A stretch of DNA of 64,000 nucleotides from Deltaproteobacteria bacterium (GTDB lineage Bacteria; Myxococcota_A; Polyangia; HGW-17): assembly GCA_016937155.1 (NCBI GenBank), contig JAFGWM010000040.1, positions 149,267-213,266 of the forward strand, written 5' to 3'. The notes under the pieces were generated by a model. It did not search any database. It saw nothing but the letters and a program-made list of their open reading frames with translations, and was not told where the DNA came from. Position numbers and translations under genes: made by a program. Below, one piece after another: positions 3,861 through 31,343 of this stretch; position 1 is the stretch's first letter; the number at the start of each line of letters is the position of its first letter.

Positions 3861-4559
3861 ATGCAAAGAGGATTTCTTATCATATCCATACTGATGTTTG
3901 CTGAAACTGGATATGCACAGACAAAAACTTCTGTTACACCAACAGGCTATAATTTACCGGATTCACAGTTTCTTTGTTTGAAAATTCAGACTTACTATAA
4001 CAAAATTAAAACATTTAAATCTGATTTCAAACAGGTTTTTTCAAAAAAATTCCACGGAGATCAGAAACCTGAATATGGAAAAGTGTATATAAAGAAACCG
4101 GGAAAAATGACCTGGGAATATACCAGACCGGAAAAAAAATTGTTTATTGTTGATGGGAAGAAAGTATGGGTATATGAACCTGTGCAAAAGCAGGCTTTAT
4201 GGAAAAATCTTGGTGACAGCGGACTCCCGGCGCCTGTGAAATTCCTTTGGGGGAAAGGAAATCTGATTAATGAGTTTAATGTTAAGATTATAAAAAATTC
4301 CAAATTTGCCGGTAAAAATGAATCTGTTTTAAAGTTACTTCCTAAAAAGAAATCGCCACATTTTAAATCAGTTCTCTTTGTTGTTGATGCATCCGGAGCT
4401 GTTAAACAGAGCATTGTCTATGACAGAGAAGGAAACAGGAATAGAATTTATTTCAACTCAATAATACTTGATAAGCCAATTCCTGATAAATTATTTAAGT
4501 TTATTCCCCCTAAGGGCATTCAGGTACTTGAGGCGGGAGTGGAAAAGAAGAAAAAATAG
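3861..4559 (+). CDS. LolA-like outer-membrane lipoprotein carrier family protein
   Basis: 232 aa; signal peptide; central motif KPGKMTWEYTRPEKKLFIVDGKKVWVYEP resembles the LolA/LppX fold signature. Confidence 0.5.
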   Translation: MQRGFLIISILMFAETGYAQTKTSVTPTGYNLPDSQFLCLKIQTYYNKIKTFKSDFKQVFSKKFHGDQKPEYGKVYIKKPGKMTWEYTRPEKKLFIVDGKKVWVYEPVQKQALWKNLGDSGLPAPVKFLWGKGNLINEFNVKIIKNSKFAGKNESVLKLLPKKKSPHFKSVLFVVDASGAVKQSIVYDREGNRNRIYFNSIILDKPIPDKLFKFIPPKGIQVLEAGVEKKKK

Positions 4560-6566
4560 TATCAGTAAAAGAAAAACTGAAGGCATGTTTTGACTGTTTT
4601 TTCCTGCTGCTGAGCATCCACAACCATTATCCTCTGTTTTTTCATTTTTACAGTCCTCACTGCAGCCGTCTCCGGAGAGGGTGTTTCCGTCATCACAGGT
4701 TTCGTTAATATCGACAATAGAGTTACCACAGACTTCAGTGCTTTTACAGTCTTCACTGCAGCCGTCGCCGGAGAGAGTGTTTCCGTCATCACAGGCTTCG
4801 TTAATATCGATAATAGAGTTACCACAGACTTCAGTGCTTTTACAGTCTTCACTGCAGCCGTCGCCGGAGAGAGTGTTTCCATCATCACAGATTTCGTTAA
4901 TATCGACAATAGAGTTACCACAGACTTCAGTGCTTTTACAATTCTCACTGCAGCCGTCTCCGGACAGGGTGTTTCCATCATCACAGATTTCAAGTCCTTC
5001 AAGAATACCATTTCCACATTCTGAATTTAGACTGGTTAAAGCAGTTTCTATATCTGGAAAAGGCCCTATGTTTTCTGATGTATCACCGGTTTGAGGAATT
5101 CCGGTTGAGATCAGTAAATCCCTTATTGTTAATGCATCAAAGGAAGTTGCAGAAATACAACGCGGAGGATCGAAATATATGTCATCACAGGTTTCTCCAT
5201 TAGTGCATTCTGTTGAAGAACAGTCTGCTCCTGAACCACTTGCCCTCAATATTCCTAATAAAACAGCAATAGTTCCCGTGACAATTGGTGATGCACTGCT
5301 TGTTCCACCAAATTCACTTGTGTAGTATTGATTTACATCACCTCCTCCCGTGAAAAGATCTCCATAACCTGTGGAATACACCTGACTACCCCATGCCTGA
5401 ACGTCCATTCTGGAACCATAATTACTGTACCATTCACGGGATCTTGCCTGAGGATTTGTTCCCGGGAGTCCAGCACCAACCATAATTGCCCCTGAATCCG
5501 AAATTTCTTTATCAAAAGCATTATTGTAAACAGGATCATCCAGATTTTCCCATCCGTTGGCTCCAGCTTCAACTATGATGTAACCATTAGATACAGCTGT
5601 TCGGATTGCATCATATGTTGCTGGAATCCATTCAACCGGAACAAGTCCAGCATAGGTGGAATCATCATAATTTGGACCATATTCCTGAGCTTCCAGAAGA
5701 AATATGGATCCTGTTGGAAAATTTTCCAGAGCATTGGTGATTCCTCTGGCGACGTTGTATCCATATTCATATGTGTAGTCTGGTGAAAAACCACACAGCC
5801 CGTTTGTAGCAGCTCCCGTGATTCCATAACCGTTATGGGACCCAAAAATAATACCAAGAACGGAGGTTCCGTGATCAACAAATGCCTGTTCAGCATATAA
5901 TGTTCCCGCGTCGGGAATAAGAGCATTTATGCAGTTTTCCAGATCCTCGTGATCCTTGTTCCAGTTATATTCAATGTCAACAATTGTAATACCTTCTCCC
6001 CTGGAACCAGGAATATCCCTGACTGATTCGATTCCGGTTCCAATTGGCGACTCACTGAAATACCCCTGAAATTCAGCATAAGAGGGAGTAACAGGAGGAA
6101 TATCCTCAGGGGGGGGTACAGGTATGGTAAGTGGATATGCCACCTCAATAAAGTCCAGTGAATTAATGATTTTTAATAAAGTTGAGAGAGGTTTTTTACT
6201 GTTTCTGAAATCAATTCGATAATATTTTGTAAGATCAGCTAAAGTGCATCTGCAGTTTATTTCTCCAGTTGTTTTAAGTGTTTTTAAAAAACTGTAGTTT
6301 CTGCCAAATGTCGGGCTGGAAGCTGTTGCTCCAAGACTCTCCAGTAAATAAATTTCTTTTCCATTACTGTCTTTTACCACTAACTCCTGAATTGAATAAT
6401 CCAGTTCCTCACTCAATTTTATCTCAATATAACCACTCCAGATATTTTCGCTTATATCAGTAAAGGACAGCCAATTCATTTCTCTTCTGGGGCCTATAGT
6501 TTGAGAAGCCCAGGATGCAGGAACTAAAAAAAACAGTATTAGTGCAGTAGTAAGAAGATTTTTCAT
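4491..6566 (-). CDS. secreted subtilisin-like (S8) serine peptidase with four C-terminal Myxococcus-type Cys-rich repeats and a C-terminal Cys/TM/basic anchor
   Basis: 691 aa; signal peptide; S8 triad contexts (ITIVDIEY Asp, HGTSVLGII His, GGTSSASP Ser); four repeats of CGNSIVDINExCDDGNTLSGDGCSEDCKSTEV; tail GCGCSAAG + hydrophobic helix + RLKYLNALRGNKLK. Confidence 0.85.
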   Translation of the reverse strand: MKNLLTTALILFFLVPASWASQTIGPRREMNWLSFTDISENIWSGYIEIKLSEELDYSIQELVVKDSNGKEIYLLESLGATASSPTFGRNYSFLKTLKTTGEINCRCTLADLTKYYRIDFRNSKKPLSTLLKIINSLDFIEVAYPLTIPVPPPEDIPPVTPSYAEFQGYFSESPIGTGIESVRDIPGSRGEGITIVDIEYNWNKDHEDLENCINALIPDAGTLYAEQAFVDHGTSVLGIIFGSHNGYGITGAATNGLCGFSPDYTYEYGYNVARGITNALENFPTGSIFLLEAQEYGPNYDDSTYAGLVPVEWIPATYDAIRTAVSNGYIIVEAGANGWENLDDPVYNNAFDKEISDSGAIMVGAGLPGTNPQARSREWYSNYGSRMDVQAWGSQVYSTGYGDLFTGGGDVNQYYTSEFGGTSSASPIVTGTIAVLLGILRASGSGADCSSTECTNGETCDDIYFDPPRCISATSFDALTIRDLLISTGIPQTGDTSENIGPFPDIETALTSLNSECGNGILEGLEICDDGNTLSGDGCSENCKSTEVCGNSIVDINEICDDGNTLSGDGCSEDCKSTEVCGNSIIDINEACDDGNTLSGDGCSEDCKSTEVCGNSIVDINETCDDGNTLSGDGCSEDCKNEKTEDNGCGCSAAGKNSQNMPSVFLLLILFFLLFHSRLKYLNALRGNKLK
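4645..5005. repeat. about three near-identical tandem 120-bp DNA repeats (coding, inside the subtilase gene)
   Basis: direct reading: unit ...ttttacagtcttcactgcagccgtcgccggagagagtgtttccgtcatcacaggcttcgttaatatcgataatagagttaccacagacttcagtgc... recurs with only a few substitutions. Confidence 0.85.
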
Positions 6567-6582
6567 TCAGTTATCCTTTCTT

Positions 6583-8145: not shown

Positions 8146-8148
8146 TGT

Positions 8149-9147: not shown

Positions 9148-9267
9148 TTAAGGTGTAGTCACTGATAACATGTGTGAAATTCCTGTAGCAGGAGGTAAAA
9201 GAATGATCTACAAGGCTTAGAAAGATGATTTTTTTTTGTTCAGGTTAAGTTACGAAGAGGTGATGTT

Positions 9268-9894: not shown

Positions 9895-10117
9895 AACGCT
9901 TAAACGTAAAATATTTGTATCCAGATAAGTTGATGATTGTTAAAAAATATTCACATTGTAGTTTAAATCCGAAAAAAGATCGATATTATGGTTGTTTGAA
10001 AATGTTTTAAAAGTGATATAAAAACAGTTGGATAAGAAATATTTTACATCATAATTTAAAATTTACAGAATTGGCATTTTACTTGCGGTTTAGGGCAGCA
10101 GTTGTTTGGAGGTTATC

Positions 10118-10969: not shown

Positions 10970-11078
10970 AGTTTTATTTCCTGGTTCCTCTTCTTCATTT
11001 CCCAGTATTCTTAAGAAATTAAACAAACAGCCGAAAGAAAAAGAAATAAAGTAAACCCTCACGAATAAGGAGAATACA

Positions 11079-11977: not shown

Positions 11978-12015
11978 TGGATATGGAAATACAAGTTGCC
12001 TGACCTGTATTGGAA

Positions 12016-14679: not shown

Positions 14680-16404
14680 ATGCGCAGAAAAATACTTATT
14701 GTTTCCTATCTTATTTTAGCTCTTTCAATTCTCGAAGGTTGTTCAGATGATGATTCTGCAAAGGATTCTTATTCCAATAATGTTGCTAATAATGCATACA
14801 ACAACACCGCAAACGGTGGTAATGTTAATGTTGGAGGCGTTCAGGATATTGGAGTTTTCAGGGAAATTATTGAAAGTGGAGGTATTCCTGCACCTTCAAC
14901 ATTTTCTGATAACGGCTTTTTCTCTGAGCATTATATAGAATATCCGTTCAGTGACTGTGGGGAAAATATCTGCCTCAACGGAATGATGGGAAGAGGAAAT
15001 TCGGTTATATCCAATGATTATATGAATGTAATTCAGATTGTTCTTAAGTCTTATCTTGATCCGGCAGATTTTTCACGGCCACCCACAGATTTCATACTTG
15101 TTATCGATGTTTCAGGATCCATGGCAGGTGATAAAATTACGAAGGTAAGAGAAGGTCTTCATCTCATGGTTGATTCTCTTAACTCAGATGACAGAATCTC
15201 TTTGATAGCGTTTTCTGATTTTATTCAGGAAAAACTGGATCTTACGTATGCCGATTCTCTGGAAAACAAAGAGTCAATGCATCTGGCTGTAAGTAATCTT
15301 GTTCCTGGGGGTTCGACTAATATTTACGGTGGATTGAGTGCTGGTTTTGCAAAAGCACAAATCGGTGTTGAACAGGAAAGACATGTAAGAGTTGTACTTC
15401 TTTCTGATGGAGTTCCAACTTCCGGTGAAGTGGATCCTAATGTCATTCAAAGTTTTGCTGAATCAAGAGCTACTGATAATGTTCAACTTACAAGTATAGG
15501 AGTCGGTTCAGATATTAACTATGATCTTATGAAAAATCTGGCTCTCGAAGGCGGAAATTTTTATTATATCGAGAACTATAGTGCCCTCAGTGATATTTTT
15601 GTTACAGAACTTGATTATTTTGCATTTCCTATAGCAAAAGATATTACCATAAGTGTTGTTTCATCCACTGGTATAAAAATAGGAGATTCTGTTGGATTTG
15701 GTGATGCCTGGATTCCCGAAGGTAATGGAGGAAGTGCACAATTCCCCAATCTGTATCTTGCTTCAAGAACAAGTAATGATATTGAAGATCCCTATTCCAG
15801 AAGAGGTGGTGGCAGTGCACTGTTTTTAAGGGTTACCCCAACAGGAGAGACAGTGGATCTTTCTAAGGCATATGTAAAATTGAGATATCTGGACCCGGAT
15901 ATGGATGATTATGTGGATCAACTTTTCACTCTCAGTGATCTGGGAATGGATGGCTCTATTCCAGTTGATGAATATTACAGTGAGTACGAAATGAAAAAGA
16001 GCTTTGCAATGCTGAATGCTTACCTCGCTTTTTATGAGACGGTTGTTTTAGCTGAGAACTGGATGATGGAGGAGAGTTTTGATTTGATAACAGGGGCTAT
16101 TGACTGGATGTACACAGTGAACATCGTTCTAGATGATGATGATATATCAGCAGATATAGTATTGATGGAACAACTTTCAAATAATATATATCCTTACACT
16201 TATAGCGGGGATGACTATTACTGCAACAATGGTGATTGTTATTATCCAGAGACAGATTATGAAAACGACAGAGAAGAAGTTCATTACGGATGTTCCCAGG
16301 GTAATGGAAACAGTTCACACTTCATTTCAATAATGCTTCTGACCCTGAGTTTTGCCTTATATTTCCGCAGAAAATATTCCTTCAAAAAAGTTAAAGATCT
16401 CTAA
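14680..16404 (+). CDS. von Willebrand factor A domain lipoprotein with C-terminal Cys/TM/basic anchor
   Basis: lipobox ILEGCSDD; Asn-rich linker NNVANNAYNNTANGGNVNVGG; vWA MIDAS context DFILVIDVSGSMAGDKI; C-terminus GCSQGNGNSS + hydrophobic helix + RRKYSFKKVKDL. Confidence 0.75.
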   Translation: MRRKILIVSYLILALSILEGCSDDDSAKDSYSNNVANNAYNNTANGGNVNVGGVQDIGVFREIIESGGIPAPSTFSDNGFFSEHYIEYPFSDCGENICLNGMMGRGNSVISNDYMNVIQIVLKSYLDPADFSRPPTDFILVIDVSGSMAGDKITKVREGLHLMVDSLNSDDRISLIAFSDFIQEKLDLTYADSLENKESMHLAVSNLVPGGSTNIYGGLSAGFAKAQIGVEQERHVRVVLLSDGVPTSGEVDPNVIQSFAESRATDNVQLTSIGVGSDINYDLMKNLALEGGNFYYIENYSALSDIFVTELDYFAFPIAKDITISVVSSTGIKIGDSVGFGDAWIPEGNGGSAQFPNLYLASRTSNDIEDPYSRRGGGSALFLRVTPTGETVDLSKAYVKLRYLDPDMDDYVDQLFTLSDLGMDGSIPVDEYYSEYEMKKSFAMLNAYLAFYETVVLAENWMMEESFDLITGAIDWMYTVNIVLDDDDISADIVLMEQLSNNIYPYTYSGDDYYCNNGDCYYPETDYENDREEVHYGCSQGNGNSSHFISIMLLTLSFALYFRRKYSFKKVKDL

Positions 16405-17657: not shown

Positions 17658-17745
17658 CAGGGTTTATTTCCCGGAACATGAAATCCTGAAAAGTAACAGT
17701 GTTGGTAAAAGTTAGCAGATGTTAAAACTGCGTCAATACAAATTA

Positions 17746-19151: not shown

Positions 19152-20057
19152 ATGGAGAATTTATCTAAATATTATCCGTTGATTATCAATCTTGCCATGA
19201 TTGCGCTTGTTAATTCAGGAGCAGGAATAGCTGCTGCTGATATTACAGCATATTTTTTGTACAGTGCTCCTGTTTATGAGATGGCAGCAAAAGGCATTTC
19301 AAAAAAATCATCCAAAAGGAAGAATGAAAAACGACTGTCCGGGGATATAAGAGCAATTTTGAAAAGAAATATGTTTTGTAGTACCTGTGAGCCCATTTCT
19401 CTTGATGACATTAAGGATGCCGGTGGAAAACAGCCTGAAAAGAAAGTTGACTCCCTCGAAGGTGCAACACTCCTGAGTACAATGCTTGCGGAAAGAGAGA
19501 TTTTTTCTCTTGCTGCCATTGCAGTGGAGAAACCTGAAGTGCGTACTATTCTTGTTGGTATTAACGATGAAGTGGGTGGAGCAAAAGTGATTATGATTGA
19601 GGATAAAAAGGTTACATTCCTTAAGGATGGTAAGGAAAAAATTCTTACCCTTACCGGAGAACCTAAGACAATTGCTTCTAAATCTTCAACCCCTGGAAAA
19701 CCGAAAACCAAGGATGAAGAATGGGCAAGCAAGATAAAGCAGATTGGACCAAATAAATACGAAGTGGAAAGATCTGTCGTAATGGATTTAATGCAGACAA
19801 TGGCTCAAAGAGGTCGTGGTGCAATGGTAATTCCTGATCCTAAAGGTGGATTCAGAGTTTCCTTTATACGATCCTACAGTATTTTCTATAAACTGGGTAT
19901 TAGATCAGGAGATGTGATCAAATCGGTAAATAATATCCAGCTTGATTCTTTTGATAAAGCTCTATTGATGTATACAAAACTGAAAAATGCAAATCACCTG
20001 ACTATTTCAATTAATCGTCGGGGTAAAACCGAAAATATGGATTTTTCAATCAGGTAA
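19152..20057 (+). CDS. gspC: type II secretion system protein C-like (N-terminal TM anchor, C-terminal PDZ-like domain)
   Basis: 301 aa; N-terminal hydrophobic helix; C-terminal GIRSGDVIKSVNNIQLDSFDKAL resembles a PDZ domain; directly precedes the secretin gene. Confidence 0.55.
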   Translation: MENLSKYYPLIINLAMIALVNSGAGIAAADITAYFLYSAPVYEMAAKGISKKSSKRKNEKRLSGDIRAILKRNMFCSTCEPISLDDIKDAGGKQPEKKVDSLEGATLLSTMLAEREIFSLAAIAVEKPEVRTILVGINDEVGGAKVIMIEDKKVTFLKDGKEKILTLTGEPKTIASKSSTPGKPKTKDEEWASKIKQIGPNKYEVERSVVMDLMQTMAQRGRGAMVIPDPKGGFRVSFIRSYSIFYKLGIRSGDVIKSVNNIQLDSFDKALLMYTKLKNANHLTISINRRGKTENMDFSIR

Positions 20058-20072
20058 CGAGAGGGATATACC

Positions 20073-22661
20073 TTGAGACTACTTAATTATTTAACAGTGT
20101 TTGTGGTAATACTTTCAACGTCGACCGGTTCTCTGGCCCAGCGGAAAGCCAGAGATTATAAGTACCGGAGAAACAACAGGGGGAATCTTGGCAAGCCTCA
20201 GGGTGGTGGTGGCGGTTCGGCCACTGCTGTTGGAAGTGCAAAGGATGATCCTAATTTCAATGAATGCAAGAACGTTCCCCAGTACCGGAGAATGAAGGTT
20301 TCACTTAAACCTGAAGCTAAACTTACTGAGTTGATAGGATGGATCAGTTCTCTCACATGCCGTAAATTTATTCTTACTAAAAACATCAGAGCTCAGGAAG
20401 TTACTATTTATTCACCCACCAAGGTAACTCCCAGAGAGTCGTACAGGGCATTTCTAAGTGCTCTGGAGGCAATGGGTCTTACAGTTCAGAAAAGCGGTTC
20501 ATATTATAAAATAATGGAATCAGAAAAAGCAAAGGGTCTTGTTCATCCTCTGGTTACTCCAGGTGGATATGTAGGAACAGGTGAAACTCTGGTTACCGCA
20601 ATGCTTAGAGTCAGATATGCAGAGCTTCAGGATGTGGCAGATGCTCTTGGTAAGTTTAAAAGTAAATATGGTGAAATCACTATTTATAAACCTACAAACC
20701 TTATTATTATCACAGATCTTGCAGATAGTATTACCAGGTTGCAGAGAATACTGAGACATCTTGATGTGGAAGGTGTCAACAATGAGAAAATCTGGGTTGT
20801 GAAGATTAAAAATGGTGATGCAGAGGAAATAGCAAATAAACTGAAAGAAGTTTTTGATACAGCAGGTGGCTCCTCAACATCAAAAACTGCAAAACCGACG
20901 AATTCCTACAGTAACAGAAGAAGTTCCAGAAGAAAACTGTACAAACCCGCAACTAGTACCCCTGCCTCAAAAGTCAATTCAGTGGGGAGTAACTCTTCAA
21001 TATCTAAAATAATTGCAGACGAAAGAACTAATTCACTTATTATTAAAGCTGATGACAGTTCTTATCTGGAAATACTTTCTCTTCTTGGAAAACTGGATGT
21101 AAAACTACCAGGTGGAGAAGAAAAAATTCATATTATTTATCTTGAAAATGCAGATGCAGAAGAAATGGCAGGCCTGTTAGGTTCACTTACTGGTTCTGGT
21201 GGCGGAAGTTCTTATAATTCCAGGAGAAATTCTACCTCAAGACGAGGTTCAACTTCCCGGCGTGGTTCAAGCAGTTCATACAGAGGATACAGTGGCTACG
21301 GATCATCATACGGACGTTCAAACAGTCAGCAGATCCAGGGAATTTTCAAGGGTCCCGTTCAGGTACAGCCTGACAGAAGCACAAACTCTCTGGTAATTAT
21401 GGCTTCGTCAAAAGATTTTCTATCCCTGAGAAGGATTATCAAGGAACTTGATAAACCCAGAAGACAGGTTTTCGTTGAAGTTACAATTATGGAAGTTAGT
21501 CTGGATAAAACCAGAAATCTCGGGTTATCTTTCCATGGTGGAAATACAATAGGAACCGGCGATGAACAATCCATACTTTTCGGAGGATCAATTTCAAATC
21601 AGGCAACCAACTCGATTATTATGAATCCATTGTCTCTTATGGGTTTTGCTGTTGGTTTGAGGGGACCTGAAATTGCGGACGCAGAGTCTCTTCTTGGAAT
21701 TCCAGGTCTTACATTTCCTTCATTTGGTGTGTTCTTTCAGGCACTTCAGACTAATAATGCAGTAAATGTTATTTCATCCCCGCATCTTCTTACCACAAAT
21801 AACGAAGAGGCTGAAATTACAGTGGGGGAGAATGTTCCTTTTCAGGCCGGAATTTCATCAATTTCCTCTCTGGCAAGTTCCTATGGTTCTTCAAGTTCTC
21901 TTGTGATGCCCAGTGTAGCCCCTATTCAGAGACAGGATGTTGCACTGAAGTTAAAAATAGTTCCCCATGTCAATAAGAGTAATTTTGTTCGCATGGAAGT
22001 TGAGCAGGAAATAAATGAGGTTAAATCCATCGATCAGATAGTTGGTCCGACTACATCCAAGAGAAAAGCTTCCACAGTTGTTGTGGTAAAGGATCAGCAG
22101 ACAGTTGTTATTGGTGGTCTGATGACGGAGAAATTCAAAAGTGCTGTTACCAAGGTACCACTTTTGGGGGATATTCCGCTTTTCGGGTATCTTTTTAAAT
22201 CCACAGTTAAAAATGTTGAAAAAACAAATCTTCTTATCTTCATAACTCCTTATATAATAAGAGATGAAAGTGATCTCAGAAGAATTTTTCAGGAAAAGAT
22301 AAAACAAAGAAAAGAGTTTATTGAAAAATTTGCAGCGTTTAAGGATCACGACATAGATCGAACCATAAATTACAAGCATAAATGCGGGATGTTTGAGGAG
22401 ATAAATCGTGAAGCCAAAAAAATGGAGGATGAGATCGAATTAAAGCGTAAAGCTATGGAGGAATACAAGGAAATAGATAATTCCGGTCCGGTTATTGTAA
22501 AAAATGCTGATGTTCTTAAGTTGCAGAAGGCACTTAAAAAAGTCAGAGATGATGATGAAAAGGAAACTGAAAAATCCGGAAAATTGGATAAAAAGGACAA
22601 CAAGTCAGAGTTATCCTCAAAGAATTCTAAAAAACCAGTAAAGACGGGAGAAAAAAAATAG
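20073..22661 (+). CDS. gspD: type II secretion system secretin GspD
   Basis: 862 aa; signal peptide; N-domains; secretin C-domain (VVIGGLMTE...VPLLGDIPLFGYLFK...LLIFITPYII); unusual RS/G-rich insert and long K/E-rich C-terminal tail. Confidence 0.9.
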   Translation: MRLLNYLTVFVVILSTSTGSLAQRKARDYKYRRNNRGNLGKPQGGGGGSATAVGSAKDDPNFNECKNVPQYRRMKVSLKPEAKLTELIGWISSLTCRKFILTKNIRAQEVTIYSPTKVTPRESYRAFLSALEAMGLTVQKSGSYYKIMESEKAKGLVHPLVTPGGYVGTGETLVTAMLRVRYAELQDVADALGKFKSKYGEITIYKPTNLIIITDLADSITRLQRILRHLDVEGVNNEKIWVVKIKNGDAEEIANKLKEVFDTAGGSSTSKTAKPTNSYSNRRSSRRKLYKPATSTPASKVNSVGSNSSISKIIADERTNSLIIKADDSSYLEILSLLGKLDVKLPGGEEKIHIIYLENADAEEMAGLLGSLTGSGGGSSYNSRRNSTSRRGSTSRRGSSSSYRGYSGYGSSYGRSNSQQIQGIFKGPVQVQPDRSTNSLVIMASSKDFLSLRRIIKELDKPRRQVFVEVTIMEVSLDKTRNLGLSFHGGNTIGTGDEQSILFGGSISNQATNSIIMNPLSLMGFAVGLRGPEIADAESLLGIPGLTFPSFGVFFQALQTNNAVNVISSPHLLTTNNEEAEITVGENVPFQAGISSISSLASSYGSSSSLVMPSVAPIQRQDVALKLKIVPHVNKSNFVRMEVEQEINEVKSIDQIVGPTTSKRKASTVVVVKDQQTVVIGGLMTEKFKSAVTKVPLLGDIPLFGYLFKSTVKNVEKTNLLIFITPYIIRDESDLRRIFQEKIKQRKEFIEKFAAFKDHDIDRTINYKHKCGMFEEINREAKKMEDEIELKRKAMEEYKEIDNSGPVIVKNADVLKLQKALKKVRDDDEKETEKSGKLDKKDNKSELSSKNSKKPVKTGEKK

Positions 22662-24410
22662 ATGTCCACTCATCGTCTACTTGGTGAAATTCTGATTAAA
22701 AATATGGGGATAAGTGCGACTGATATTCATAATGCTCTTGAAAAACAGGTGGAAGAAGAATCCAGAATTGGAGAAATACTTGTTAAATCAAAGATTCTTA
22801 TGGAAAAAGATGTTCTGAAAGCACTTGCTATCCAGCAGCATATTTTATTCCGTGAAATGGATCCTAAACCTGAAGATGTGGAACTTGATCTTATTGAGCA
22901 GATACCACTGAATTATGCAAAACAAAACAGAATTACACCCCTCTGGCACAATGATGACGGAACAGTTGAAATTGCATTAAGTGATCCGGGTGTTTACTGG
23001 GCAATCGATGATGTGGCTTCAAAACTGCGGAAAAAATTAAGTATATCACTAATGGAATCTCAAAGGATTCTGGAACTTATCAACAAAGCTTATACAAGAA
23101 GAGCCACAAGTGTTGATCTTGGTGATGAAAACGAAGATTTTGCAGATGGTGATGTTGAGGATCTTGCTGATAATATAGATATTAAAGATGAAGCACCTAT
23201 CATCAGATGGGTAAATGCTATCATATACAATGCTGCAAAGGAGCGGGCTAGTGATATTCATATAGAGCCCGGTGACAGAGAAGTTGTAGTAAGGTACAGA
23301 ATTGATGGTGTGTTGTATGAAACAAAACATGCCAATAAAAATTATCTGAGTGCGATTATTGCGAGAGTTAAAATTATGTCTGGTCTTGATATTGCGGAAA
23401 AGCGCCTTCCTCAGGATGGTAGAATTCGCAGAAAAATAGCGGGCAGGGATATTGATTTTCGTGTTGCAACTATTCCAACAGCAAGAGGTGAACGTATAAC
23501 AATCCGACTGCTTGATCAAAGCAGTATTCTTCTCGGTCTTGGGGATATCGGTTTTGCTCCAAGAGAACTTGATCTTATGGAAGATCTTATTGAGAGACCC
23601 CATGGAATTATTCTTGTTACCGGGCCTACCGGTAGTGGTAAAACTACAACTCTTTACGCATCTCTGAATAAAATAAACTCACCGGAACTTAATATTCTAA
23701 CAATTGAAGATCCCGTGGAATATCAACTTGAGGGAATTTCTCAGGTTCAGGTTAATCCAAAAATTCATCTGACTTTTGCAGCTGGATTGAGATCTTTTTT
23801 ACGTCATGATCCTGATGTTATTATGGTTGGTGAGATTCGTGATCTTGAAACTGCAGAAATTGCTATTCAGGCATCACTGACAGGTCATCTTGTTTTGAGT
23901 ACTGTTCATACAAATGACAGCGCTGGGGCACTTACGAGGCTTGTGGACATGGGAGTTGAGCCGTTTCTTGTTGCATCCTCTCTAAATGGAATTCTTGCCC
24001 AGAGACTGGTAAGAAGACTCTGTCCGGTTTGTAAGGAAGAATATGAGCCAACTCCTGAGGAAATTGATGATGTTGGACTTAACCCTGATGAATTTTTCAG
24101 TGGGATGATAAAGGGTTATCCGGTAAAAGCTGGAACAAGAGTTCCTGGCCCGGGTAAACTGTTCAGAGCCAAGGGTTGTCCACAATGTCTTAATACAGGA
24201 TACCAGGGACGAACAGGGATATATGAGCTCCTCATGATGGATGATGACATTCGTGCCATGTCAATGAAGAAGATAGATGCGAACCAGATTAAAAAACTGG
24301 GTGTTTCCAAAGGTCTGAAAACATTGCGTCAGGATGGGGCTTACAAAGCAATAAGCGGGATTACAAGTCTCAGTGAAGTGATGCTTGTAACCGCGGAAGA
24401 TATAGCTTAG
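22662..24410 (+). CDS. gspE: type II secretion ATPase GspE
   Basis: Walker A GPTGSGKTTT, Asp box, His box, C-terminal tetracysteine CPVC...CPQC; 582 aa. Confidence 0.95.
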   Translation: MSTHRLLGEILIKNMGISATDIHNALEKQVEEESRIGEILVKSKILMEKDVLKALAIQQHILFREMDPKPEDVELDLIEQIPLNYAKQNRITPLWHNDDGTVEIALSDPGVYWAIDDVASKLRKKLSISLMESQRILELINKAYTRRATSVDLGDENEDFADGDVEDLADNIDIKDEAPIIRWVNAIIYNAAKERASDIHIEPGDREVVVRYRIDGVLYETKHANKNYLSAIIARVKIMSGLDIAEKRLPQDGRIRRKIAGRDIDFRVATIPTARGERITIRLLDQSSILLGLGDIGFAPRELDLMEDLIERPHGIILVTGPTGSGKTTTLYASLNKINSPELNILTIEDPVEYQLEGISQVQVNPKIHLTFAAGLRSFLRHDPDVIMVGEIRDLETAEIAIQASLTGHLVLSTVHTNDSAGALTRLVDMGVEPFLVASSLNGILAQRLVRRLCPVCKEEYEPTPEEIDDVGLNPDEFFSGMIKGYPVKAGTRVPGPGKLFRAKGCPQCLNTGYQGRTGIYELLMMDDDIRAMSMKKIDANQIKKLGVSKGLKTLRQDGAYKAISGITSLSEVMLVTAEDIA

Positions 24411-24418
24411 GTGTAAAG

Positions 24419-25651
24419 ATGCCTGTTTTTCAGTATAAATGCGTGGATACCGCCGGAAAACCCGTATCGGGATCCAAGGAAGCTGATTCTGAAAAGGCCC
24501 TCAGGGCTTCACTCAGGAAGGAAGGTCTTTTTTTACAGGAATATAAAAAATCCACCGAAAAAGGGAAAGGTCTCCAGAGAGAAATCGAGATTGGATTTCT
24601 CAATACTGTAAGTGTTGCCGATATCGCATTGATCACAAGGCAGCTTGCCACACTTCTTCGTGCCAGCGTTCCACTTACTGAGTCACTGGCTGCAATAAGT
24701 GAACAGCTTGCGAATGATAAAAAGCGCAGGAAACTGTCGAATATTATTTCTGAGGTAAAAAGAAGTGTAAATGAAGGTCTTTCTTTAGCTGAGTCATTAA
24801 GTAAACATCCTAAAGAATTTAATCAATTCTACGTAAGTATGGTGAGAAGTGGCGAGGCTGCAGGAAATCTGGATGAAGTTTTACGGACTCTTAGTGAATT
24901 TCTGGAAAAACAGAAAAAACTGAAGGATAAAATTCGCAGTGCTATGACGTATCCAATGGTTATGGGTGTGGTTACTGTAATTATTATCGGTATTTTAATG
25001 ACAAGTGTTGTTCCTAATGTGGTGAGTGTTTTTGAGGATACAGATCAGACACTGCCTATTTATACAAAAATTCTGATTGGAACCAGTGAATTTGTGAGTT
25101 CCTGGTGGCTTATGCTGATAGTTGCCTTTAGTCTTTATGTGTATATCTTCAGAAAATGGAAAGCATCAGTTTCCGGTCGGAGGAATTGGGATTCCTTTGT
25201 TTTAAAGGTTCCGGTGGTTGGTGAACTGGTGAGAAAAGTGGCTATTTCAAGGTTTACAGCCACCATGGGAACTATGCTCACCAGTGGAGTTCCCATTCTT
25301 AAGGCTTTGGAAATAGTTAAGGCTGTAATGGGTAATGTGATTCTTCAGGAAGTTGTGGATGATGTTGAATCTGCAATAAGAGAAGGTAAGGGTATAGGTA
25401 AAACTCTTGAACTTTCAGGTGAATTTCCTCCCCTTGTAACACATATGATTGCTATTGGTGAGAAAAGTGGACAGCTTGAAGAAATGTTGAAGAATGTAGC
25501 GATGGCTTATGAAGATGAGGTTGAAACTGCCATCACCAGGCTCACGAGTGTACTTGAGCCGTTAATGATTGTCACAATGGGTAGTGTGGTAGCATTTGTT
25601 GTATTTTCAATACTTATGCCAATCATGCAGATGAATAATATAGGACTTTAG
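24419..25651 (+). CDS. gspF: type II secretion inner-membrane platform protein GspF
   Basis: 410 aa; duplicated GspF/PilC domain with three TM helices. Confidence 0.9.
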   Translation: MPVFQYKCVDTAGKPVSGSKEADSEKALRASLRKEGLFLQEYKKSTEKGKGLQREIEIGFLNTVSVADIALITRQLATLLRASVPLTESLAAISEQLANDKKRRKLSNIISEVKRSVNEGLSLAESLSKHPKEFNQFYVSMVRSGEAAGNLDEVLRTLSEFLEKQKKLKDKIRSAMTYPMVMGVVTVIIIGILMTSVVPNVVSVFEDTDQTLPIYTKILIGTSEFVSSWWLMLIVAFSLYVYIFRKWKASVSGRRNWDSFVLKVPVVGELVRKVAISRFTATMGTMLTSGVPILKALEIVKAVMGNVILQEVVDDVESAIREGKGIGKTLELSGEFPPLVTHMIAIGEKSGQLEEMLKNVAMAYEDEVETAITRLTSVLEPLMIVTMGSVVAFVVFSILMPIMQMNNIGL

Positions 25652-25661
25652 GAGAGAAACC

Positions 25662-26084
25662 ATGAAACGTGAAAATGTTACAGCAAGAGCATTAAGAAAT
25701 CTGAAATCCCAGAGAGGTATGACCCTGATAGAGATTATGATCGTTATTGTTATTCTCGGTCTTATCATTGGTGCAATTACCTTTGGTGTGATGCCCAGAT
25801 TTAAAAAGGCAAAGAAAAAGACTACTCAACTCAAATTGAATAATATTGCAAGTATCCTTACAGAGAGTGCCGAAGAACCAGAGCACAGCGGAAAAGAAGG
25901 AAACCAGATCCTTGAAGCTCTGGTTACTGATGGAACAATTAAAAAGTCTGATCTTAAGGATGCCTGGGGACAGGAAGTCAAGGCTGAAAAAGCTGGAGAA
26001 GGTTTTTGTGTCAGAAGTGCCGGACCTGACAAGAGTTTTAACACAGCTGATGATGTTCTCAGCAATGACTGTAATGAGAACTGA
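25662..26084 (+). CDS. gspG: major pseudopilin GspG (type IV pilin-like N-terminus)
   Basis: prepilin signature ...QRG/MTLIEIMIVIVILGLIIGAI with Glu at +5; 140 aa; unusually long 19-aa leader. Confidence 0.85.
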   Translation: MKRENVTARALRNLKSQRGMTLIEIMIVIVILGLIIGAITFGVMPRFKKAKKKTTQLKLNNIASILTESAEEPEHSGKEGNQILEALVTDGTIKKSDLKDAWGQEVKAEKAGEGFCVRSAGPDKSFNTADDVLSNDCNEN

Positions 26085-26089
26085 TTAAA

Positions 26090-26830
26090 ATGAAGTATTT
26101 CCCCTGTAAATACCCTGATAGGGAAATAAATAAGGGGGAAGAGGGATTTACCCTCATTGAGATACTGATAGTTATTGTTATTATGGGATTAATAATAGGA
26201 AGCATTGCTTTTTATTTTAAAGTTATCCCTAAAATGAGAATGAAAGAAAGCTCCAGGAAGTTTGCCAATGCTATCCGGTTCACTTCCAATCATGCGCGTA
26301 CCACTAGATTGTTTCACCGGTTGATTCTGGATCTGGATGCAGAAAATCCCTCTCTTGAACTTGAGATAGTTCCTTCCGGGGAAACTGTTCCTGATCTTGA
26401 TCCCGAAATAACGGAAGATGAAGAGGATTCGATTACCTTCGAAGAGTGGCCGGAATTCGATCCTGCATCCCCCATAGGACCCACTGGAACAGATGATAAT
26501 TCTAAGCCTTTCAGACCAAGGCTTGGGGGGTGGAAAAAGCCTGATAAATCTTTTATGAAACCAGTTAAGCTTGAGGGAATACATATCAGGAGAGTATCGT
26601 TTCCCTGTATAGGAAAGGAATATGACAGCGGGAAGGTGGCATACTATTTTTTCCCGAATGGACAGAATTTTGGTGGTGTAATTGAACTTACAAGTGCTTC
26701 AGGTGCCAGAATGAAAATGCTGGTTCACGCTGCAACTGGCCTTGTTCAATTTGTGGATGCTGATTCGGATAACAGAAATCTCTGTTTTGATGATGATGGA
26801 AACAACGTTGAGAAACTGGATAATAACTGA
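26090..26830 (+). CDS. minor pseudopilin (GspH-like)
   Basis: prepilin N-terminus ...EEG/FTLIEILIVIVIMGLIIGSIAF; 246 aa. Confidence 0.7.
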   Translation: MKYFPCKYPDREINKGEEGFTLIEILIVIVIMGLIIGSIAFYFKVIPKMRMKESSRKFANAIRFTSNHARTTRLFHRLILDLDAENPSLELEIVPSGETVPDLDPEITEDEEDSITFEEWPEFDPASPIGPTGTDDNSKPFRPRLGGWKKPDKSFMKPVKLEGIHIRRVSFPCIGKEYDSGKVAYYFFPNGQNFGGVIELTSASGARMKMLVHAATGLVQFVDADSDNRNLCFDDDGNNVEKLDNN

Positions 26831-26831
26831 C

Positions 26832-27572
26832 ATGAGAACTACCATGAGCACACTAAAAAGAGGATTTACACTTCTGGAAGTTGTGTTGTCACTGGCTATC
26901 TTAAGTATGTCTCTCCTGTGGATTCTCAAAGGTCAGAGTGATTCGGTTTCAAGGAGTGTAAGAAGCCGGCTTCTTACTCAGGGTATGCATCTGGCTCAGG
27001 CTAAACTTCTGGAAACAGAATTTAACCTCAGAAGAGATGGTTTTGGTACATTCGAGGATGAAAATTGCGGTGATTTTGATCCTTCTGATTATGAGGGTTC
27101 CGAGAGATTCAGATACTGCGTGATTATTGAGAAGATTGAATTGCCGGATATGGCTATGCTACAGGAAAAAATTATGGGTGGTATGGGTACCTCTGATGAA
27201 TCCGCTGAGGGAACAAATACTTCGCCACTTACAGATCTTATTAGTCAGTTTCTCCCAGGGGCAGGTTCATCTTCGATGGATGAAGGTCTGGGAAAAATGG
27301 CTTCCTCTTTTATGGGACAGGCCATGAGTATGATTCAGAGTGTTTTGGAGGCTGCAGTAAGACGTGTTACTGTCAGGGTGATGTGGAGAGTAGCAAAAAA
27401 AGAAAGATATTTTGAGCTGGTGTCATACCTTACTGATCTTGATGAGCTGGATAGATCACTCATCAGTCCTTCAAACACTGGGACTTCAGGTACAACAGGA
27501 ACTTCTTCCACAGGAACCTCTTCCACAACCAGAACGACAGGGAGTTCTTCATCGGGGAGTACAACAAGATGA
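26832..27572 (+). CDS. minor pseudopilin (GspI-like) with Ser/Thr-rich C-terminal tail
   Basis: ORF 26742..27572; likely start MRTTMSTLKRG/FTLLEVVLSLAIL (or MSTLKRG at about 26844); C-terminal TGTSGTTGTSSTGTSSTTRTTGSSSSGSTTR. Confidence 0.65.
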   Translation: MRTTMSTLKRGFTLLEVVLSLAILSMSLLWILKGQSDSVSRSVRSRLLTQGMHLAQAKLLETEFNLRRDGFGTFEDENCGDFDPSDYEGSERFRYCVIIEKIELPDMAMLQEKIMGGMGTSDESAEGTNTSPLTDLISQFLPGAGSSSMDEGLGKMASSFMGQAMSMIQSVLEAAVRRVTVRVMWRVAKKERYFELVSYLTDLDELDRSLISPSNTGTSGTTGTSSTGTSSTTRTTGSSSSGSTTR

Positions 27573-28381
27573 GGTACCTGATTCTTCAACCGCATACATG
27601 TTCAAAGAAAGGCATGACCCTTATAGAGGTGCTTGTTTCACTGGTTATTATTTCAATAATGACAGCAAGTGTGTATGGAACAATTTATACATCCAGACAG
27701 GTACAAAAGGCAAATGAACAGAAATCCAAACAGTATCAGTTGATTAGAGGTTTTCTGTCAATGCTGGAAGATGATTTGAGTATGTCCTATCTGTCACTTG
27801 GGGAAGACACAAGTGCTCCTGAAAAGAGAACTTTTTTCAGGGCAAACTACGATGGTGCCGGCTTAAATCTGGTTTTTTCAACATTTTCACATATCAGAAG
27901 CAGTCGAAAAAATCATGAAGCTGATAATGCCATCGTGCAATATGCAATCATTGACGATCCCGAGATGCCATCAAGATATGCCATAAAGCGCAGAGAAACC
28001 CACAGGCTGGAACAGAAGTATTTCGAAGAAATTCCTGGGGAAAGCTGGCTTATTCTACCAAGAGTAGACTCGTTAAGAATGGAATTTTATGACAAAACCC
28101 GTGATGAATGGCTCGAGGAATGGGATACAACAACCATAGACGGACAGATCAATCGTCTTCCAAATCAGATAAAAATTCATCTGGTGGTTGAAGATGGAAG
28201 GGAGAATCTTATCCACTTCACAACATTTGTTCAGCCAAAACTAATTGATTCAATAAACCTTACACCTTCAGGAAATTCAAGCAGCAGTTCGAGTAGTACC
28301 AGCTCTTCAACGTCAGGAAGTTCATCCACCGGAAGAACAACTACCGGTTCTACAACTTCCAGCACCAGGGTGACAAGATGA
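27569..28381 (+). CDS. minor pseudopilin (GspJ-like) with Ser/Thr-rich C-terminal tail
   Basis: prepilin N-terminus ...KKG/MTLIEVLVSLVIISIM; 270 aa; C-terminal SSSSSSTSSSTSGSSSTGRTTTGSTTSSTRVTR. Confidence 0.65.
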   Translation: MRYLILQPHTCSKKGMTLIEVLVSLVIISIMTASVYGTIYTSRQVQKANEQKSKQYQLIRGFLSMLEDDLSMSYLSLGEDTSAPEKRTFFRANYDGAGLNLVFSTFSHIRSSRKNHEADNAIVQYAIIDDPEMPSRYAIKRRETHRLEQKYFEEIPGESWLILPRVDSLRMEFYDKTRDEWLEEWDTTTIDGQINRLPNQIKIHLVVEDGRENLIHFTTFVQPKLIDSINLTPSGNSSSSSSSTSSSTSGSSSTGRTTTGSTTSSTRVTR

Positions 28382-29604
28382 ACAAATCTTCTTCACGTTC
28401 CCAAAGAGGATATGCGCTGCTTATAGTTACCATGGCAATTGCTATTATTGGTGTTCTTGTACAAATGTTTATTCTTTCTTCACAGGCTGAACTCAGATCC
28501 GTCCGGGCAGAGGGAGATCGGATAAAAGCAAGATATATCAGTTATAGCGTACTGGAAGTAACGAAACTATTTCTTAAGGTTCAGGAAAAATTTCTTGATA
28601 ACAACGCAATGCTGTCACAAATGGGTCTTGATATGGGACAGTTTCTTCCGATGATACTTCCGCTTTTTTTTGGGGATGTGGATATGGTTGGCGCAATGAT
28701 TGGCACCGATGTTGTTGGTCTTGGTATGAAACCCGGTCAGGGAAGTGGTGGAATGATTTCTATGGATGCTGAAGATGGAAAAATCAATATAAACTGTGCA
28801 ATTTCAGATGCTAATATTCAGCAATTAAATCTTAATCTCACAGCACTTTTTTCCAGCAGGCGTTATGATGAACTCTTTGGAAGACTTCTTTCAGATTCCG
28901 ATTCGCTGGATAGAGTTCAGCAGGTGGGGGCCTTTATCGACTTCATTGATCTGGATCAGGGAGGTTATGCCGGGGGTGATGAGGATGGATACTATATGGG
29001 ACTGTCTGAACCCTATGTTTCAAAAAATAATTTGCTTGATTCCAATGAAGAAATCAGACTTATAAGGGGTGTTGATGACGTTTTCTGGACGAATTTTGGG
29101 AGTTCATTGACAGTATATGGTTCATGTAATCTGAATCTATGTGCTGTTGATTCAAATAACTGGCAACTGGTTGCAGGAATAATTGTTGCCAGTGCAAAGG
29201 ATCCCAATCATAAGGTTATAAATGATCCAGTTTTACTGAAAATGCTGGCGACTACTGTTGCACCACAAATTCCAGGGATTTGCAAAGACACAAGTACTTT
29301 TATACAGGCAGTGGCTAATCCTGGTGTTGCATCAAATGTAATGGCTGCGGCTCTTGGAATAAGTGCAGATGAAATGAGTGATCTTGGTAATGATGGGGTA
29401 AATGATGCAGAGGTTCAGGGGGTTGAACTTGATCAGAGTAAGCTTAGTAAAATAGTTACAAGTGCCTCCAAGCGTTTTTATCGTCTGAAGGTTTATGGTG
29501 TATCCGGAAAATCAAAACATATGGTTAATGCAGTTTGGGATCAAAAGCTGGTTTCAACTTCTTCCGGAAAAACCGGTGGTTTTGTTTACTGGAGGGAAGA
29601 ATAA
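28378..29604 (+). CDS. gspK: type II secretion minor pseudopilin GspK-like
   Basis: 408 aa; N-terminal RGYALLIVTMAIAIIGVL helix lacking Glu+5 as in GspK; operon position after the I/J-like genes. Confidence 0.65.
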   Translation: MNKSSSRSQRGYALLIVTMAIAIIGVLVQMFILSSQAELRSVRAEGDRIKARYISYSVLEVTKLFLKVQEKFLDNNAMLSQMGLDMGQFLPMILPLFFGDVDMVGAMIGTDVVGLGMKPGQGSGGMISMDAEDGKININCAISDANIQQLNLNLTALFSSRRYDELFGRLLSDSDSLDRVQQVGAFIDFIDLDQGGYAGGDEDGYYMGLSEPYVSKNNLLDSNEEIRLIRGVDDVFWTNFGSSLTVYGSCNLNLCAVDSNNWQLVAGIIVASAKDPNHKVINDPVLLKMLATTVAPQIPGICKDTSTFIQAVANPGVASNVMAAALGISADEMSDLGNDGVNDAEVQGVELDQSKLSKIVTSASKRFYRLKVYGVSGKSKHMVNAVWDQKLVSTSSGKTGGFVYWREE

Positions 29605-29651
29605 TATCCCTTAAAATTTGTTCACGTTTAGTGGACTGGACAGGATGAAAG

Positions 29652-31331
29652 ATGAGTGGCAGATATTTTGTCATTGATATTGGAAGCAGAAACATAAAAG
29701 GAGCTGTCTGTGATGTCAGAAAAAAGGAATTTACTGTAATCGACACCATCGCAGTCAAAAAACCTCTTTTAAAAATAGAATACAGTTCTGCGATTAAAAA
29801 TATCCTTGAAAAACTCGGTGGAAAATCTTCCCAGAATATAATTATTTCCATAGGAGATGGAGTATATCTGAGAAATATGACATTTCCATTCAGTGAAAGA
29901 TCTAAAATAGATCCTCTTGTTCTATATGAATTTGGAGATCAACTTCCTGAAGAAATAGATGATCTTACCACTACCTGGACAATTAATCCCAAGGGGCAGA
30001 GTTCTGAAAGTATTGTTTTGTGCGCAGCTACTTCCTCAGACAATGTTGTTCAGATGATAAACAATATAAATACACTAGGAGGGGATGTATGCCGATTTGT
30101 GATGAGTGGTGCAAGAGCAATGACATTCGGTATTCCTGGGGATAATTATGCCGCGGTTATTGATTTTGGTGCCGGTTTAACAGAAATATCCATTCTGCAC
30201 GGAGATACGGTTGTGATGTCCAGAATTATTTACTCAGGTGTGGAGGATATAATTGATTCTTTGGCTTCATTTACCGGTCAGGATGTGGATGTAATAAGAA
30301 ACTGGATTATTACTTCCGGTGGTGTGAGTATGGAACATCCTGATGAAGAAGAATTTGAAAAAATAATCAGAAATGAACTGGTAAAACAGACTGAAGAATG
30401 GAGAAAATTTATTGGCATATCTGAAAAGGAACTTGGTTTAACAATAGGTGATATAGTTCTTACCGGGGGAGGAAGTGCACTACAGGGACTTTTACCGTTT
30501 GTATCAAATGTTACCGGAAAAAAAGTTACTCATGCTTCGATACCCAATGTGATTATGCCTCAGGAGTGGATTTCAACTATTGCCCTGGTTTCCACAGCAA
30601 CAAAATACAGTAGTGATATGTGTGATTTCAGAAGAGGTGGTTTGGCCAGAGGGGCTTCTTTTTCACTGGTGAAGGACAGAGCTTTAATGGTGATGATGTC
30701 TTTGATGTTGTTTTTTGGATCTCTGGTTGTTTCAGGGGTGGTAAGCCTTAATAATCTTGAAAGACAGGAAAAGGATCTTCTTGGTTTGAGTGCTCTGTTA
30801 TCCAGAGAAGTTCTCGGAAAAAAATTCATGGATCCTGGTTCAATAAATCGAAGTATCAAGAAAAAATTTAAGAAAGGTAAAAAGGGAATAGATAAGTCCG
30901 AGTCTCCGATTCCCAGAATGAGCGCATATACGGTGCTTGGGCTGATATCGAGTAATCTGCCACCAGCTAAACCTTTGAAAAAGGATGGAGAGAAGGCAAC
31001 GGAAGAAAAGCCGGATGAAAAAGAAAAGACTTCTCCTCCTTCAGATAAAAAATCTGATGAAAAAGCAAAAAAACCATCAGATTCAAAACCCGAAGTTGTT
31101 GATGAAAAATTAAAAGAAATCGCTCTGGATATCACCAAAATACATATTAAAACCGGAAAAATTTCAATAACCGGAACTGTGGAAAGAGCCCAGGACGTTG
31201 ATGAAATATCAAAAGGTCTTAAAAGAATTGAATGTTTTCAGGAAATCAGACAGGGAAAAATGAAAACAGTTGGTTCCGGGGAAAATGAAAAAAGGGAATT
31301 TACCCTTGATATAACAATGAACTGTTTATAG
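29652..31331 (+). CDS. gspL: type II secretion protein GspL-like (cytoplasmic actin-like domain, single TM, periplasmic domain)
   Basis: N-terminus YFVIDIGSRNIKGAVCD (PilM/GspL actin-like fold); TM ALMVMMSLMLFFGSLVVSGVV; K/E-rich linker; 559 aa. Confidence 0.7.
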   Translation: MSGRYFVIDIGSRNIKGAVCDVRKKEFTVIDTIAVKKPLLKIEYSSAIKNILEKLGGKSSQNIIISIGDGVYLRNMTFPFSERSKIDPLVLYEFGDQLPEEIDDLTTTWTINPKGQSSESIVLCAATSSDNVVQMINNINTLGGDVCRFVMSGARAMTFGIPGDNYAAVIDFGAGLTEISILHGDTVVMSRIIYSGVEDIIDSLASFTGQDVDVIRNWIITSGGVSMEHPDEEEFEKIIRNELVKQTEEWRKFIGISEKELGLTIGDIVLTGGGSALQGLLPFVSNVTGKKVTHASIPNVIMPQEWISTIALVSTATKYSSDMCDFRRGGLARGASFSLVKDRALMVMMSLMLFFGSLVVSGVVSLNNLERQEKDLLGLSALLSREVLGKKFMDPGSINRSIKKKFKKGKKGIDKSESPIPRMSAYTVLGLISSNLPPAKPLKKDGEKATEEKPDEKEKTSPPSDKKSDEKAKKPSDSKPEVVDEKLKEIALDITKIHIKTGKISITGTVERAQDVDEISKGLKRIECFQEIRQGKMKTVGSGENEKREFTLDITMNCL

Positions 31332-31343
31332 GAAGTCTGACTG

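Follow-up and report, generated by a model that had tools for sequence, protein, structure and literature searches.

The question raised by this locus is what kind of protein is encoded by a 691-amino-acid (aa) gene of an uncultured bacterium, and where in the cell its product is delivered. The gene lies on the minus strand, near one end of a 64,000-nt stretch of DNA (the window) from Deltaproteobacteria bacterium (assembly GCA_016937155.1, contig JAFGWM010000040.1, positions 149,267 to 213,266). An earlier note, made from the sequence alone, had read it as an S8 peptidase domain followed by cysteine-rich repeats and a C-terminal tail resembling the MYXO-CTERM sorting signals. An ATG-to-stop open reading frame (ORF) of 691 aa occupies exactly 4491-6566 (-), starts 16 nt past the stop of the preceding gene and has a Shine-Dalgarno-like AAGGA 7 nt 5' of its ATG. 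The product is identical to NCBI protein MBN2724115.1, whose record for Deltaproteobacteria bacterium, on a 254-kb contig, is annotated only as a 'DUF4215 domain-containing protein'. All three elements of the proposed architecture were tested and were borne out, and 22 proteins of 38-58% identity, recovered in a homology search, share the architecture from end to end. The gene probably encodes a cell-surface serine protease of the subtilisin family that is sorted by the MYXO-CTERM/myxosortase route.

The assignment to the subtilases was examined by profile, alignment and structure. Pfam PF00082 (Peptidase_S8) matches the protein with 37.6 bits against a gathering score of 21.8; this is a partial match, covering aa 319-438. 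In an alignment of 23 orthologues, Asp197, His232, the oxyanion Asn337 and Ser423 are invariant, as are many of the flanking glycines. A profile made from this alignment matches many solved subtilases, the best being StmPr1 (E = 7e-14), with the HGT and GTS motifs aligned and with the N-terminus of mature StmPr1 aligning from about aa 157. The AlphaFold model, computed from the 23-sequence alignment, has a mean predicted local distance difference test (pLDDT) score of 77.9, and contains a compact alpha/beta domain at aa 30-150 (pLDDT 90-98) followed by a disordered linker at aa 155-174. When this model was compared to the PDB with Foldseek, the only hits at probability 1.00 were subtilases, of which there were more than 50, with target-normalised TM-scores up to 0.75. 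The longest of these alignments, at more than 440 columns, were to fervidolysin and pro-Tk-subtilisin, which are precursors that retain the propeptide. The profile score above threshold, the invariant triad and oxyanion Asn and the subtilisin fold uphold the earlier reading on this point and support a subtilisin-family serine protease which is predicted to be catalytically competent.

The signal peptide was read by eye as MKNLLTTALILFFLVPASWA/SQ, and all full-length orthologues have an equivalent hydrophobic N-terminus. If the protein behaves as subtilases generally do, aa 21-156 would act as its propeptide. In fold and in the order of the triad it is like the solved subtilases StmPr1 (9i67, 9g8v), AprV2/BprV of Dichelobacter nodosus (3lpd, 3ti7), fervidolysin (1r6v) and pro-Tk-subtilisin (2e1p), with which it also shares a mature-domain start of the 'P..TP.Y..Q.Y' type and, in the precursor forms, an N-terminal propeptide. 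Identity to these proteins is, however, only 15-22%. The family of the window protease has D-[IVM]-E and not D-T-G around the catalytic Asp, G-T-S-S-A around the Ser, and a conserved GYGDLF...Q.YT insertion ahead of the Ser; none of the solved subtilases has the cysteine-repeat stalk and sorting tail found here. A second insertion, of about 30 residues with four cysteines, was observed in the C-terminal part of the catalytic domain (aa 443-472, 5151-5240); it is confined to one clade (P0001-P0008), and the remaining 15 orthologues lack it.

Downstream of the catalytic domain are four tandem copies of the motif CGN(S/G)I..(I/L).E.CDDGNTLSGDGCSE(D/N)C. The earlier note had taken these to be Myxococcus cysteine-rich repeats and had asked for a profile search, which identified them as such: TIGR02232 (myxo_disulf_rpt, cysteine-rich acidic repeat) scores 117.4 bits against a cut-off of 20.8 (E = 1.6e-34), and DUF4215 (PF13948) scores 85.3 bits against 27, each in four stretches. 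All four units have the spacing C-x10-C-x10-C-x3-C with an acidic CDDGN...GDGC core, and their cysteine columns are invariant or nearly so in the orthologues. Tandem Repeats Finder reports a single array at 4646-4991, with a period of 96 bp, 3.6 copies, 94% matches and a score of 587; these values, like the TIGR02232 match, are not to be expected by chance. The copy number of four and the quoted motif given previously therefore stand, but the unit of 40 aa (120 bp) does not, as the real unit is 32 aa (96 bp) and the quoted motif itself has 31 residues. Similarly, the description of the units as nearly identical holds for units 2 and 3 only, which share 95.8% DNA identity, whereas unit 4 is 85% identical to units 2 and 3, with most of the differences in the linker, and unit 1 is 72-80% identical to the others. 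A plus-strand ORF (4681-5094) and a nested minus-strand ORF (4562-5017) within the array were rejected as by-products of the repeats and are not genes.

Variation in repeat number had also been proposed, and was found between orthologues, which carry 3-6 units; between strains such variation is likely. An independent Logan assembly of SRR13394436 (contig SRR13394436_160913) matches the window at 4911-24343, a length of 19,433 nt, without mismatch, and ends 12 nt into unit 2. As this contig ends inside the array, and as the array contains an exact 69-bp direct repeat (at 4716 and 4812) that makes its copy number sensitive to assembly method, the number four rests on the metagenome-assembled genome (MAG) alone. 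The array itself, the exact copy number here aside, is real, because each of the 22 orthologues from other samples has 3-6 such repeats in the corresponding position. The orthologous arrays are tandem at the DNA level too (for example, with a period of 96 bp and 80% matches at locus L088, and of 102 bp and 87% matches at L001), from which it follows that the stalk is ancient and that its units have been repeatedly duplicated or homogenised. The high DNA identity between units reflects recent duplication of units or gene conversion, which recurs across the protease family.

The final 47 residues of the protein are EDN-GCGC-SAAGKNSQNM-PSVFLLLILFFLLF-HSRLKYLNALRGNKLK, in which GCGC corresponds to aa 648-651 of 691. 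The hydrophobic segment SVFLLLILFFLLF is uncharged, with its sole Pro at the N-terminal boundary, and AlphaFold places a helix at aa 662-690. When the isolated tail was scanned against NCBIfam, TIGR03901.2 (MYXO-CTERM) was the top match and the sole sorting-signal model that matched; JDVT-CTERM, Synerg-CTERM, GlyGly-CTERM, PEP-CTERM and LPXTG gave no match to it in scans at E <= 10 or E <= 0.1, and each of these matches at most 1-2 of the 23 tails scanned. MYXO-CTERM, by comparison, matches 20 of the 23 at E <= 0.1. Thirteen of 21 orthologue tails match it at E <= 6e-4 (about 20 bits), the best at 8.6e-10. Five tails also match the older model TIGR03382 (GC_trans_RRR), and some of the JGI orthologues have already been named as members of the TIGR03382 family. 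The column of the second cysteine, C651, is invariant and its G-C-x-C context is kept across the full alignment of 23 orthologues, and a hidden Markov model (HMM) made from the orthologue tails only gives the window S8 tail 43.7 bits. The author of TIGR03901 describes the model as short and divergent, states that lineage-specific models together with manual inspection are required to decide on membership, and characterises true members by a position close to the C-terminus, a Cys in every case and, in many, GCGC. Judged from its sequence, the window tail qualifies as MYXO-CTERM by these criteria.

A second protein of the window has an ending of the same architecture, so that the condition under which the earlier note would have given up its reading, namely no significant model match and no other protein of the genome with such a tail, does not hold. 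A pattern scan of all window ORFs found that a VWA-domain protein (domain by Pfam) terminates in VHYGCSQGNGNSS-HFISIMLLTLSFALYF-RRKYSFKKVKDL, that is, in GCS, a helix and RRK. Its orthologues in three relatives of 31-37% GC (L085, 7868-9526; L086, 12805-14523; L087, 7817-9547) keep the terminal VHYGCS, the helix and a K/R cluster. The VWA protein and these orthologues all bear an N-terminal lipoprotein box (e.g. LEGC/S), and their sequences suggest that the protein may be lipid-anchored at both termini. On the HMM made from S8-orthologue tails only, the VWA tail has a weak score of 15.4 bits (E = 0.006 over 7,759 ORF tails). It is a plausible, though not proven, second sorting substrate; the MYXO-CTERM tail has been reported on 3-73 proteins per genome. 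The third match of the pattern scan, in Lgt, was discarded as it is merely the last membrane helix of that enzyme.

The mechanism of MYXO-CTERM sorting has been described for Myxococcus xanthus (PMC11980579; doi 10.1101/2023.06.07.544157). There, Sec takes the proteins across the inner membrane, in which the C-terminal helix retains them; the invariant Cys is presumed to receive a lipid, MrtX, a CPBP protease, cleaves the proteins, and type II secretion brings them to the cell surface (PMC11980579). By analogy, the Sec signal peptide (aa 1-20) would carry the window precursor through the inner membrane, where the C-terminal helix (aa 662-675) and basic cluster would retain it. The pro-domain (about aa 21-156) would aid folding, and its removal near the PPPxDIPPxTP linker would free the active Asp197/His232/Ser423 enzyme, while the four 32-residue, four-Cys repeats may form a disulfide-stabilised acidic stalk between enzyme and anchor. 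One of the GCGC cysteines would then be lipidated, an intramembrane protease of the CPBP family (a myxosortase) would remove the helix, and a type II secretion system would deliver the lipid-anchored protease to the outer face of the outer membrane. Lipidation, cleavage, dependence on the secretion system and surface exposure are all predicted here from the published M. xanthus work. An operon for such a system is encoded 13 kb from the protease gene and is the putative export route to the cell surface. The link to a neighbouring secretion locus that had been suggested earlier is a possible one, in keeping with how MYXO-CTERM proteins are reported to be exported (PMC11980579).

The likeness to the M. 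xanthus MYXO-CTERM proteins (TraA, MXAN_4924, MepA; TIGR03901.2; and the M36 metallopeptidase of NF038112) includes a signal peptide combined with a GCGC-type motif, an uncharged helix and a basic cluster, and extends to a hydrolase as the passenger, the presence of a type II secretion system and an organism labelled Myxococcota; cysteine-rich repeats of the TIGR02232 type are also frequent within this phylum. The S8 passenger is a difference: among the proteases in the domain legend of the list for M. xanthus DK1622 are trypsin-like and zinc enzymes, but no S8. The window tail, furthermore, is below the cut-off and Lys-rich, the host has 38% GC, and no cognate myxosortase turned up in the window or the fetched loci. 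VesB of Vibrio cholerae, a GlyGly-CTERM protein, offers a further parallel: it is a surface serine protease whose tripartite tag is removed by an intramembrane protease and which is exported by type II secretion (PMC11980579), and the window protein may be handled in a comparable manner. VesB differs in being trypsin-like, with a Gly-Gly motif and a rhomboid serine sorting protease, where a subtilase, a Cys and a CPBP glutamic protease are proposed here.

Several observations weigh against a surface protease of the MYXO-CTERM type. Scored alone, the window tail reaches 17.2, 17.7 and 18.8 bits on TIGR03901.2 (E = 0.0015-0.005), where the curated cut-off is 20, and when the full-length protein was scanned against NCBIfam this model was not reported. 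The basic cluster HSRLKYLNALRGNKLK is weak and Lys-rich, with 2 Arg, 3 Lys and 1 His over 16 residues, and reaches about 10 residues past the ends of the orthologous tails. The VWA tails have no TIGR03901 match at E <= 1 in NCBIfam. No CPBP or myxosortase candidate was found in the 64-kb window or in 85 fetched loci (1.37 Mb) by a screen for at least four hydrophobic helices and EExxxR; the proteins which this screen did match, an ArsP permease and unrelated proteins, were rejected as myxosortases. Lastly, the AlphaFold model has pLDDT below 50 at aa 397-423, immediately before the catalytic Ser, although the remaining catalytic domain is mostly confident.

The low tail score, the weak basic cluster and the lack of a myxosortase in the window and fetched loci would all fit a plain C-terminal transmembrane anchor, in which case the protease would stay anchored on the periplasmic side of the inner membrane, neither lipidation nor cleavage would take place, and GCGC would be only the end of the cysteine-rich region. 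This is considered unlikely. The C651 column is invariant, and G-C-x-C is kept, in 23 orthologues while the surrounding residues vary freely; a non-repeat spacer separates GCGC from the last repeat; the curated model passes most of the orthologous tails; and an unrelated protein, the VWA lipoprotein, shares the ending of Cys, helix and basic residues. The orthologue tails that end in RRRR are from high-GC loci (57-70% GC, against 38% GC in the host) and the replacement of most Arg by Lys in the window tail is expected in a genome of 38% GC. The tail reading of the earlier note was retained: although below threshold, TIGR03901.2 is the top match, 13 orthologue tails score about 20 bits or more and the C651 column does not vary.

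The same low score on a generic model could alternatively be explained if the tail belonged to a different, lineage-specific sorting system of the Cys type that has an Mrt-like enzyme of its own, as JDVT-CTERM has MrtJ and Synerg-CTERM has MrtS. Haft has described how sorting signal and enzyme co-evolve lineage by lineage, and three subtypes of myxosortase are already distinguished; in the 31-38% GC lineage the tails are Lys- and Phe-rich, and the VWA tails miss TIGR03901 entirely. Set against this, the S8 tail aligns column by column with orthologous tails that are bona fide MYXO-CTERM, JDVT-CTERM and Synerg-CTERM each match one of 23 tails and neither of them the window S8 tail, and an AT-rich genome would on its own yield the shift from Arg to Lys. 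A separate system of this kind is thus improbable, and a variant in which the lineage uses a diverged Lys-rich form of MYXO-CTERM that is missed by the curated model and processed by a not-yet-classified myxosortase subtype is likewise given little credence. That the protein is not an active enzyme but an adhesin or pseudo-protease, or that the array is an artefact of assembly, is very improbable indeed: the Pfam match is weak and partial (37.6 bits, aa 319-438) and the independent assembly breaks within the array, but the triad and oxyanion Asn are invariant, the orthologue profile aligns with solved subtilases from the mature N-terminus to past the catalytic Ser, and all 22 orthologues from other samples have 3-6 repeats at the same position.

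The position of the host is of importance for the surface protease proposed here, as the published range of MYXO-CTERM is Myxococcia, Polyangia and Bradymonadales, and the system is not known from any lineage outside Myxococcota and Bradymonadales. The nearest named matches of the window ClpX are labelled 'Myxococcota bacterium' by their submitters (89, 81, 73 and 68% identity), below which the matches are phylogenetically mixed. Within the set of species-representative genomes, the full-length orthologues nearest to the protease come from MAGs labelled Haliangium (52% and 51%), Kofleriaceae (45%) and Myxococcota (38% and 43%). From these comparisons the organism appears to belong to an uncultured and unusually AT-rich lineage of 31-38% GC that is labelled Myxococcota, a phylum in which MYXO-CTERM is known.

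The coordinates of the protease gene, its parts and the associated features are given in the table.

Table. Coordinates in the 64,000-nt window of the protease gene, its predicted parts and related features
Feature	Position	Strand	Basis
Complete gene, pre-pro-subtilase with Cys-rich repeat stalk and putative C-terminal sorting tail, 691 aa	4491..6566	-	ORF and exact NCBI protein match
Predicted Sec signal peptide, aa 1-20 (MKNLLTTALILFFLVPASWA)	6507..6566	-	By inspection: hydrophobic core then A-S-W-A
Predicted N-terminal pro-domain, aa 21-156, ending in conserved PPPxDIPPxTP linker	6099..6506	-	AlphaFold, StmPr1 alignment, propeptide-bearing structures
S8 catalytic domain, aa 157-513	5028..6098	-	Pfam PF00082, orthologue conservation, profile matches, fold
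Catalytic-site residues	Asp197 5976-5978; His232 5871-5873; Asn337 5556-5558; Ser423 5298-5300	-	Invariant in 23 orthologues
Four tandem 32-aa (96-bp) Cys-rich acidic repeats, aa 517-644	4635..5018	-	Tandem Repeats Finder, TIGR02232, DUF4215
Repeat units 1-4, aa 517-548, 549-580, 581-612, 613-644	4923-5018, 4827-4922, 4731-4826, 4635-4730	-	Protein motif
Putative tripartite sorting tail, aa 645-691	4494..4634	-	TIGR03901.2 top match, orthologue-tail HMM, C651 conservation, AlphaFold
Parts of the tail	GCGC 4614-4625; polar spacer 4584-4613; hydrophobic helix PSVFLLLILFFLLF 4542-4583; basic cluster HSRLKYLNALRGNKLK 4494-4541	-	
Second tail of same architecture, GCSQGNGNSS + HFISIMLLTLSFALYF + RRKYSFKKVKDL, ending the VWA lipoprotein gene (14680-16404)	16288..16401	+	Pattern scan
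Type II secretion operon: PDZ GspC-like, secretin GspD, ATPase GspE, GspF, pseudopilins, others	19152..33145	+	Pfam Secretin, T2SSE, T2SSF, N_methyl
lolA	3861-4559	+	
lgt	12345-13145		

The genes around the protease were also inspected. The 3' ends of lolA and of the protease gene overlap by 69 bp (4491-4559), and directly 5' of the protease gene are a moxR AAA+ ATPase gene and a gene for a 520-aa membrane protein (6583-9147, minus strand), the gaps being 3 and 16 nt. The 520-aa protein is without a Pfam match and has a DUF58-like LAELRxYxxGDP motif. The order moxR / DUF58-like / S8 recurs only in the contig of the closest orthologue (L088, 2072-4593), where the 520-aa protein is 50% identical. 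The conserved neighbourhood was therefore rejected as a clue to function, as this order is absent from the more distant orthologue loci examined and is taken for synteny of the lineage and not for a system.

In the window, lgt is located between the two genes with such tails, S8 and VWA, and has lolA and the type II secretion operon in its vicinity; Lgt is the leading candidate of the M. xanthus authors for the missing MYXO-CTERM acyltransferase. In all four relatives examined (L084-L087; ClpX 78-100% identical), the clpX-lgt pair (12345-14352 in the window) adjoins the tail-bearing VWA gene; in L086 its orientation is reversed with respect to both the VWA gene and the secretion genes, and in L087 the secretion genes are no longer close by. 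Among such close relatives, this order of lgt and tail-bearing genes is weak support for a functional link.

Other genes in the window were noted as follows. Within the type II secretion operon, two minor pseudopilin-like proteins (26742-28381, plus strand) have long Ser/Thr-rich low-complexity C-terminal ends, e.g. SSSSSSSTSSSTSGSSSTGRTTTGSTTSS. Three further products are rich in cysteine: a 258-aa lipoprotein with 40 Cys, DUF7107 and a weak Myxo_Cys_RPT match (96-872, minus strand), a 418-aa protein with 32 Cys and faint FYVE/zinc-finger matches (16401-17657, minus strand) and a 166-aa lipoprotein with 17 Cys (34434-34934, minus strand). A 580-aa lipoprotein-like protein (61790-63532, plus strand) has a Peptidase_C25 domain of the gingipain/PorU type (176 bits) and a weak match to the PorU type IX sortase (62 bits against a cut-off of 420). 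An aconitase gene followed by two ATP-citrate lyase subunits (Citrate_bind plus ATP-citrate synthase ATP-grasp; CoA-ligase plus citrate synthase C-terminal domain) is located at 35325-40452 on the plus strand; these genes are a marker of the reductive tricarboxylic acid cycle or of cytosolic acetyl-CoA supply and are unusual for a genome labelled Myxococcota.

The protease family is conserved, with at least 23 clusters, and is without a curated family model; no NCBIfam model naming this S8 family was found in the scan of the protein. The closest systems are the MYXO-CTERM hydrolases, among which no S8 passenger is named; the family is therefore undescribed yet unsurprising, and the protein adds one more ordinary example to a known class of cell-surface proteins, from a myxobacterial lineage that is uncultured and unusually rich in AT. 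The gain is mainly one of annotation, in that the 'DUF4215' protein of the public record is a probable surface-anchored subtilase. Beyond this, the generic MYXO-CTERM model is less sensitive for those members of the phylum that are AT-rich, and counts of sorted surface proteins in such genomes are therefore underestimates. The link with lgt bears on the question of which enzyme lipidates MYXO-CTERM proteins: if a diverged Lys-rich form of the signal were indeed used by this lineage, and if the linkage were functional, the locus would lend genomic support to the published proposal that the MYXO-CTERM cysteine is lipidated by Lgt acting as the acyltransferase.

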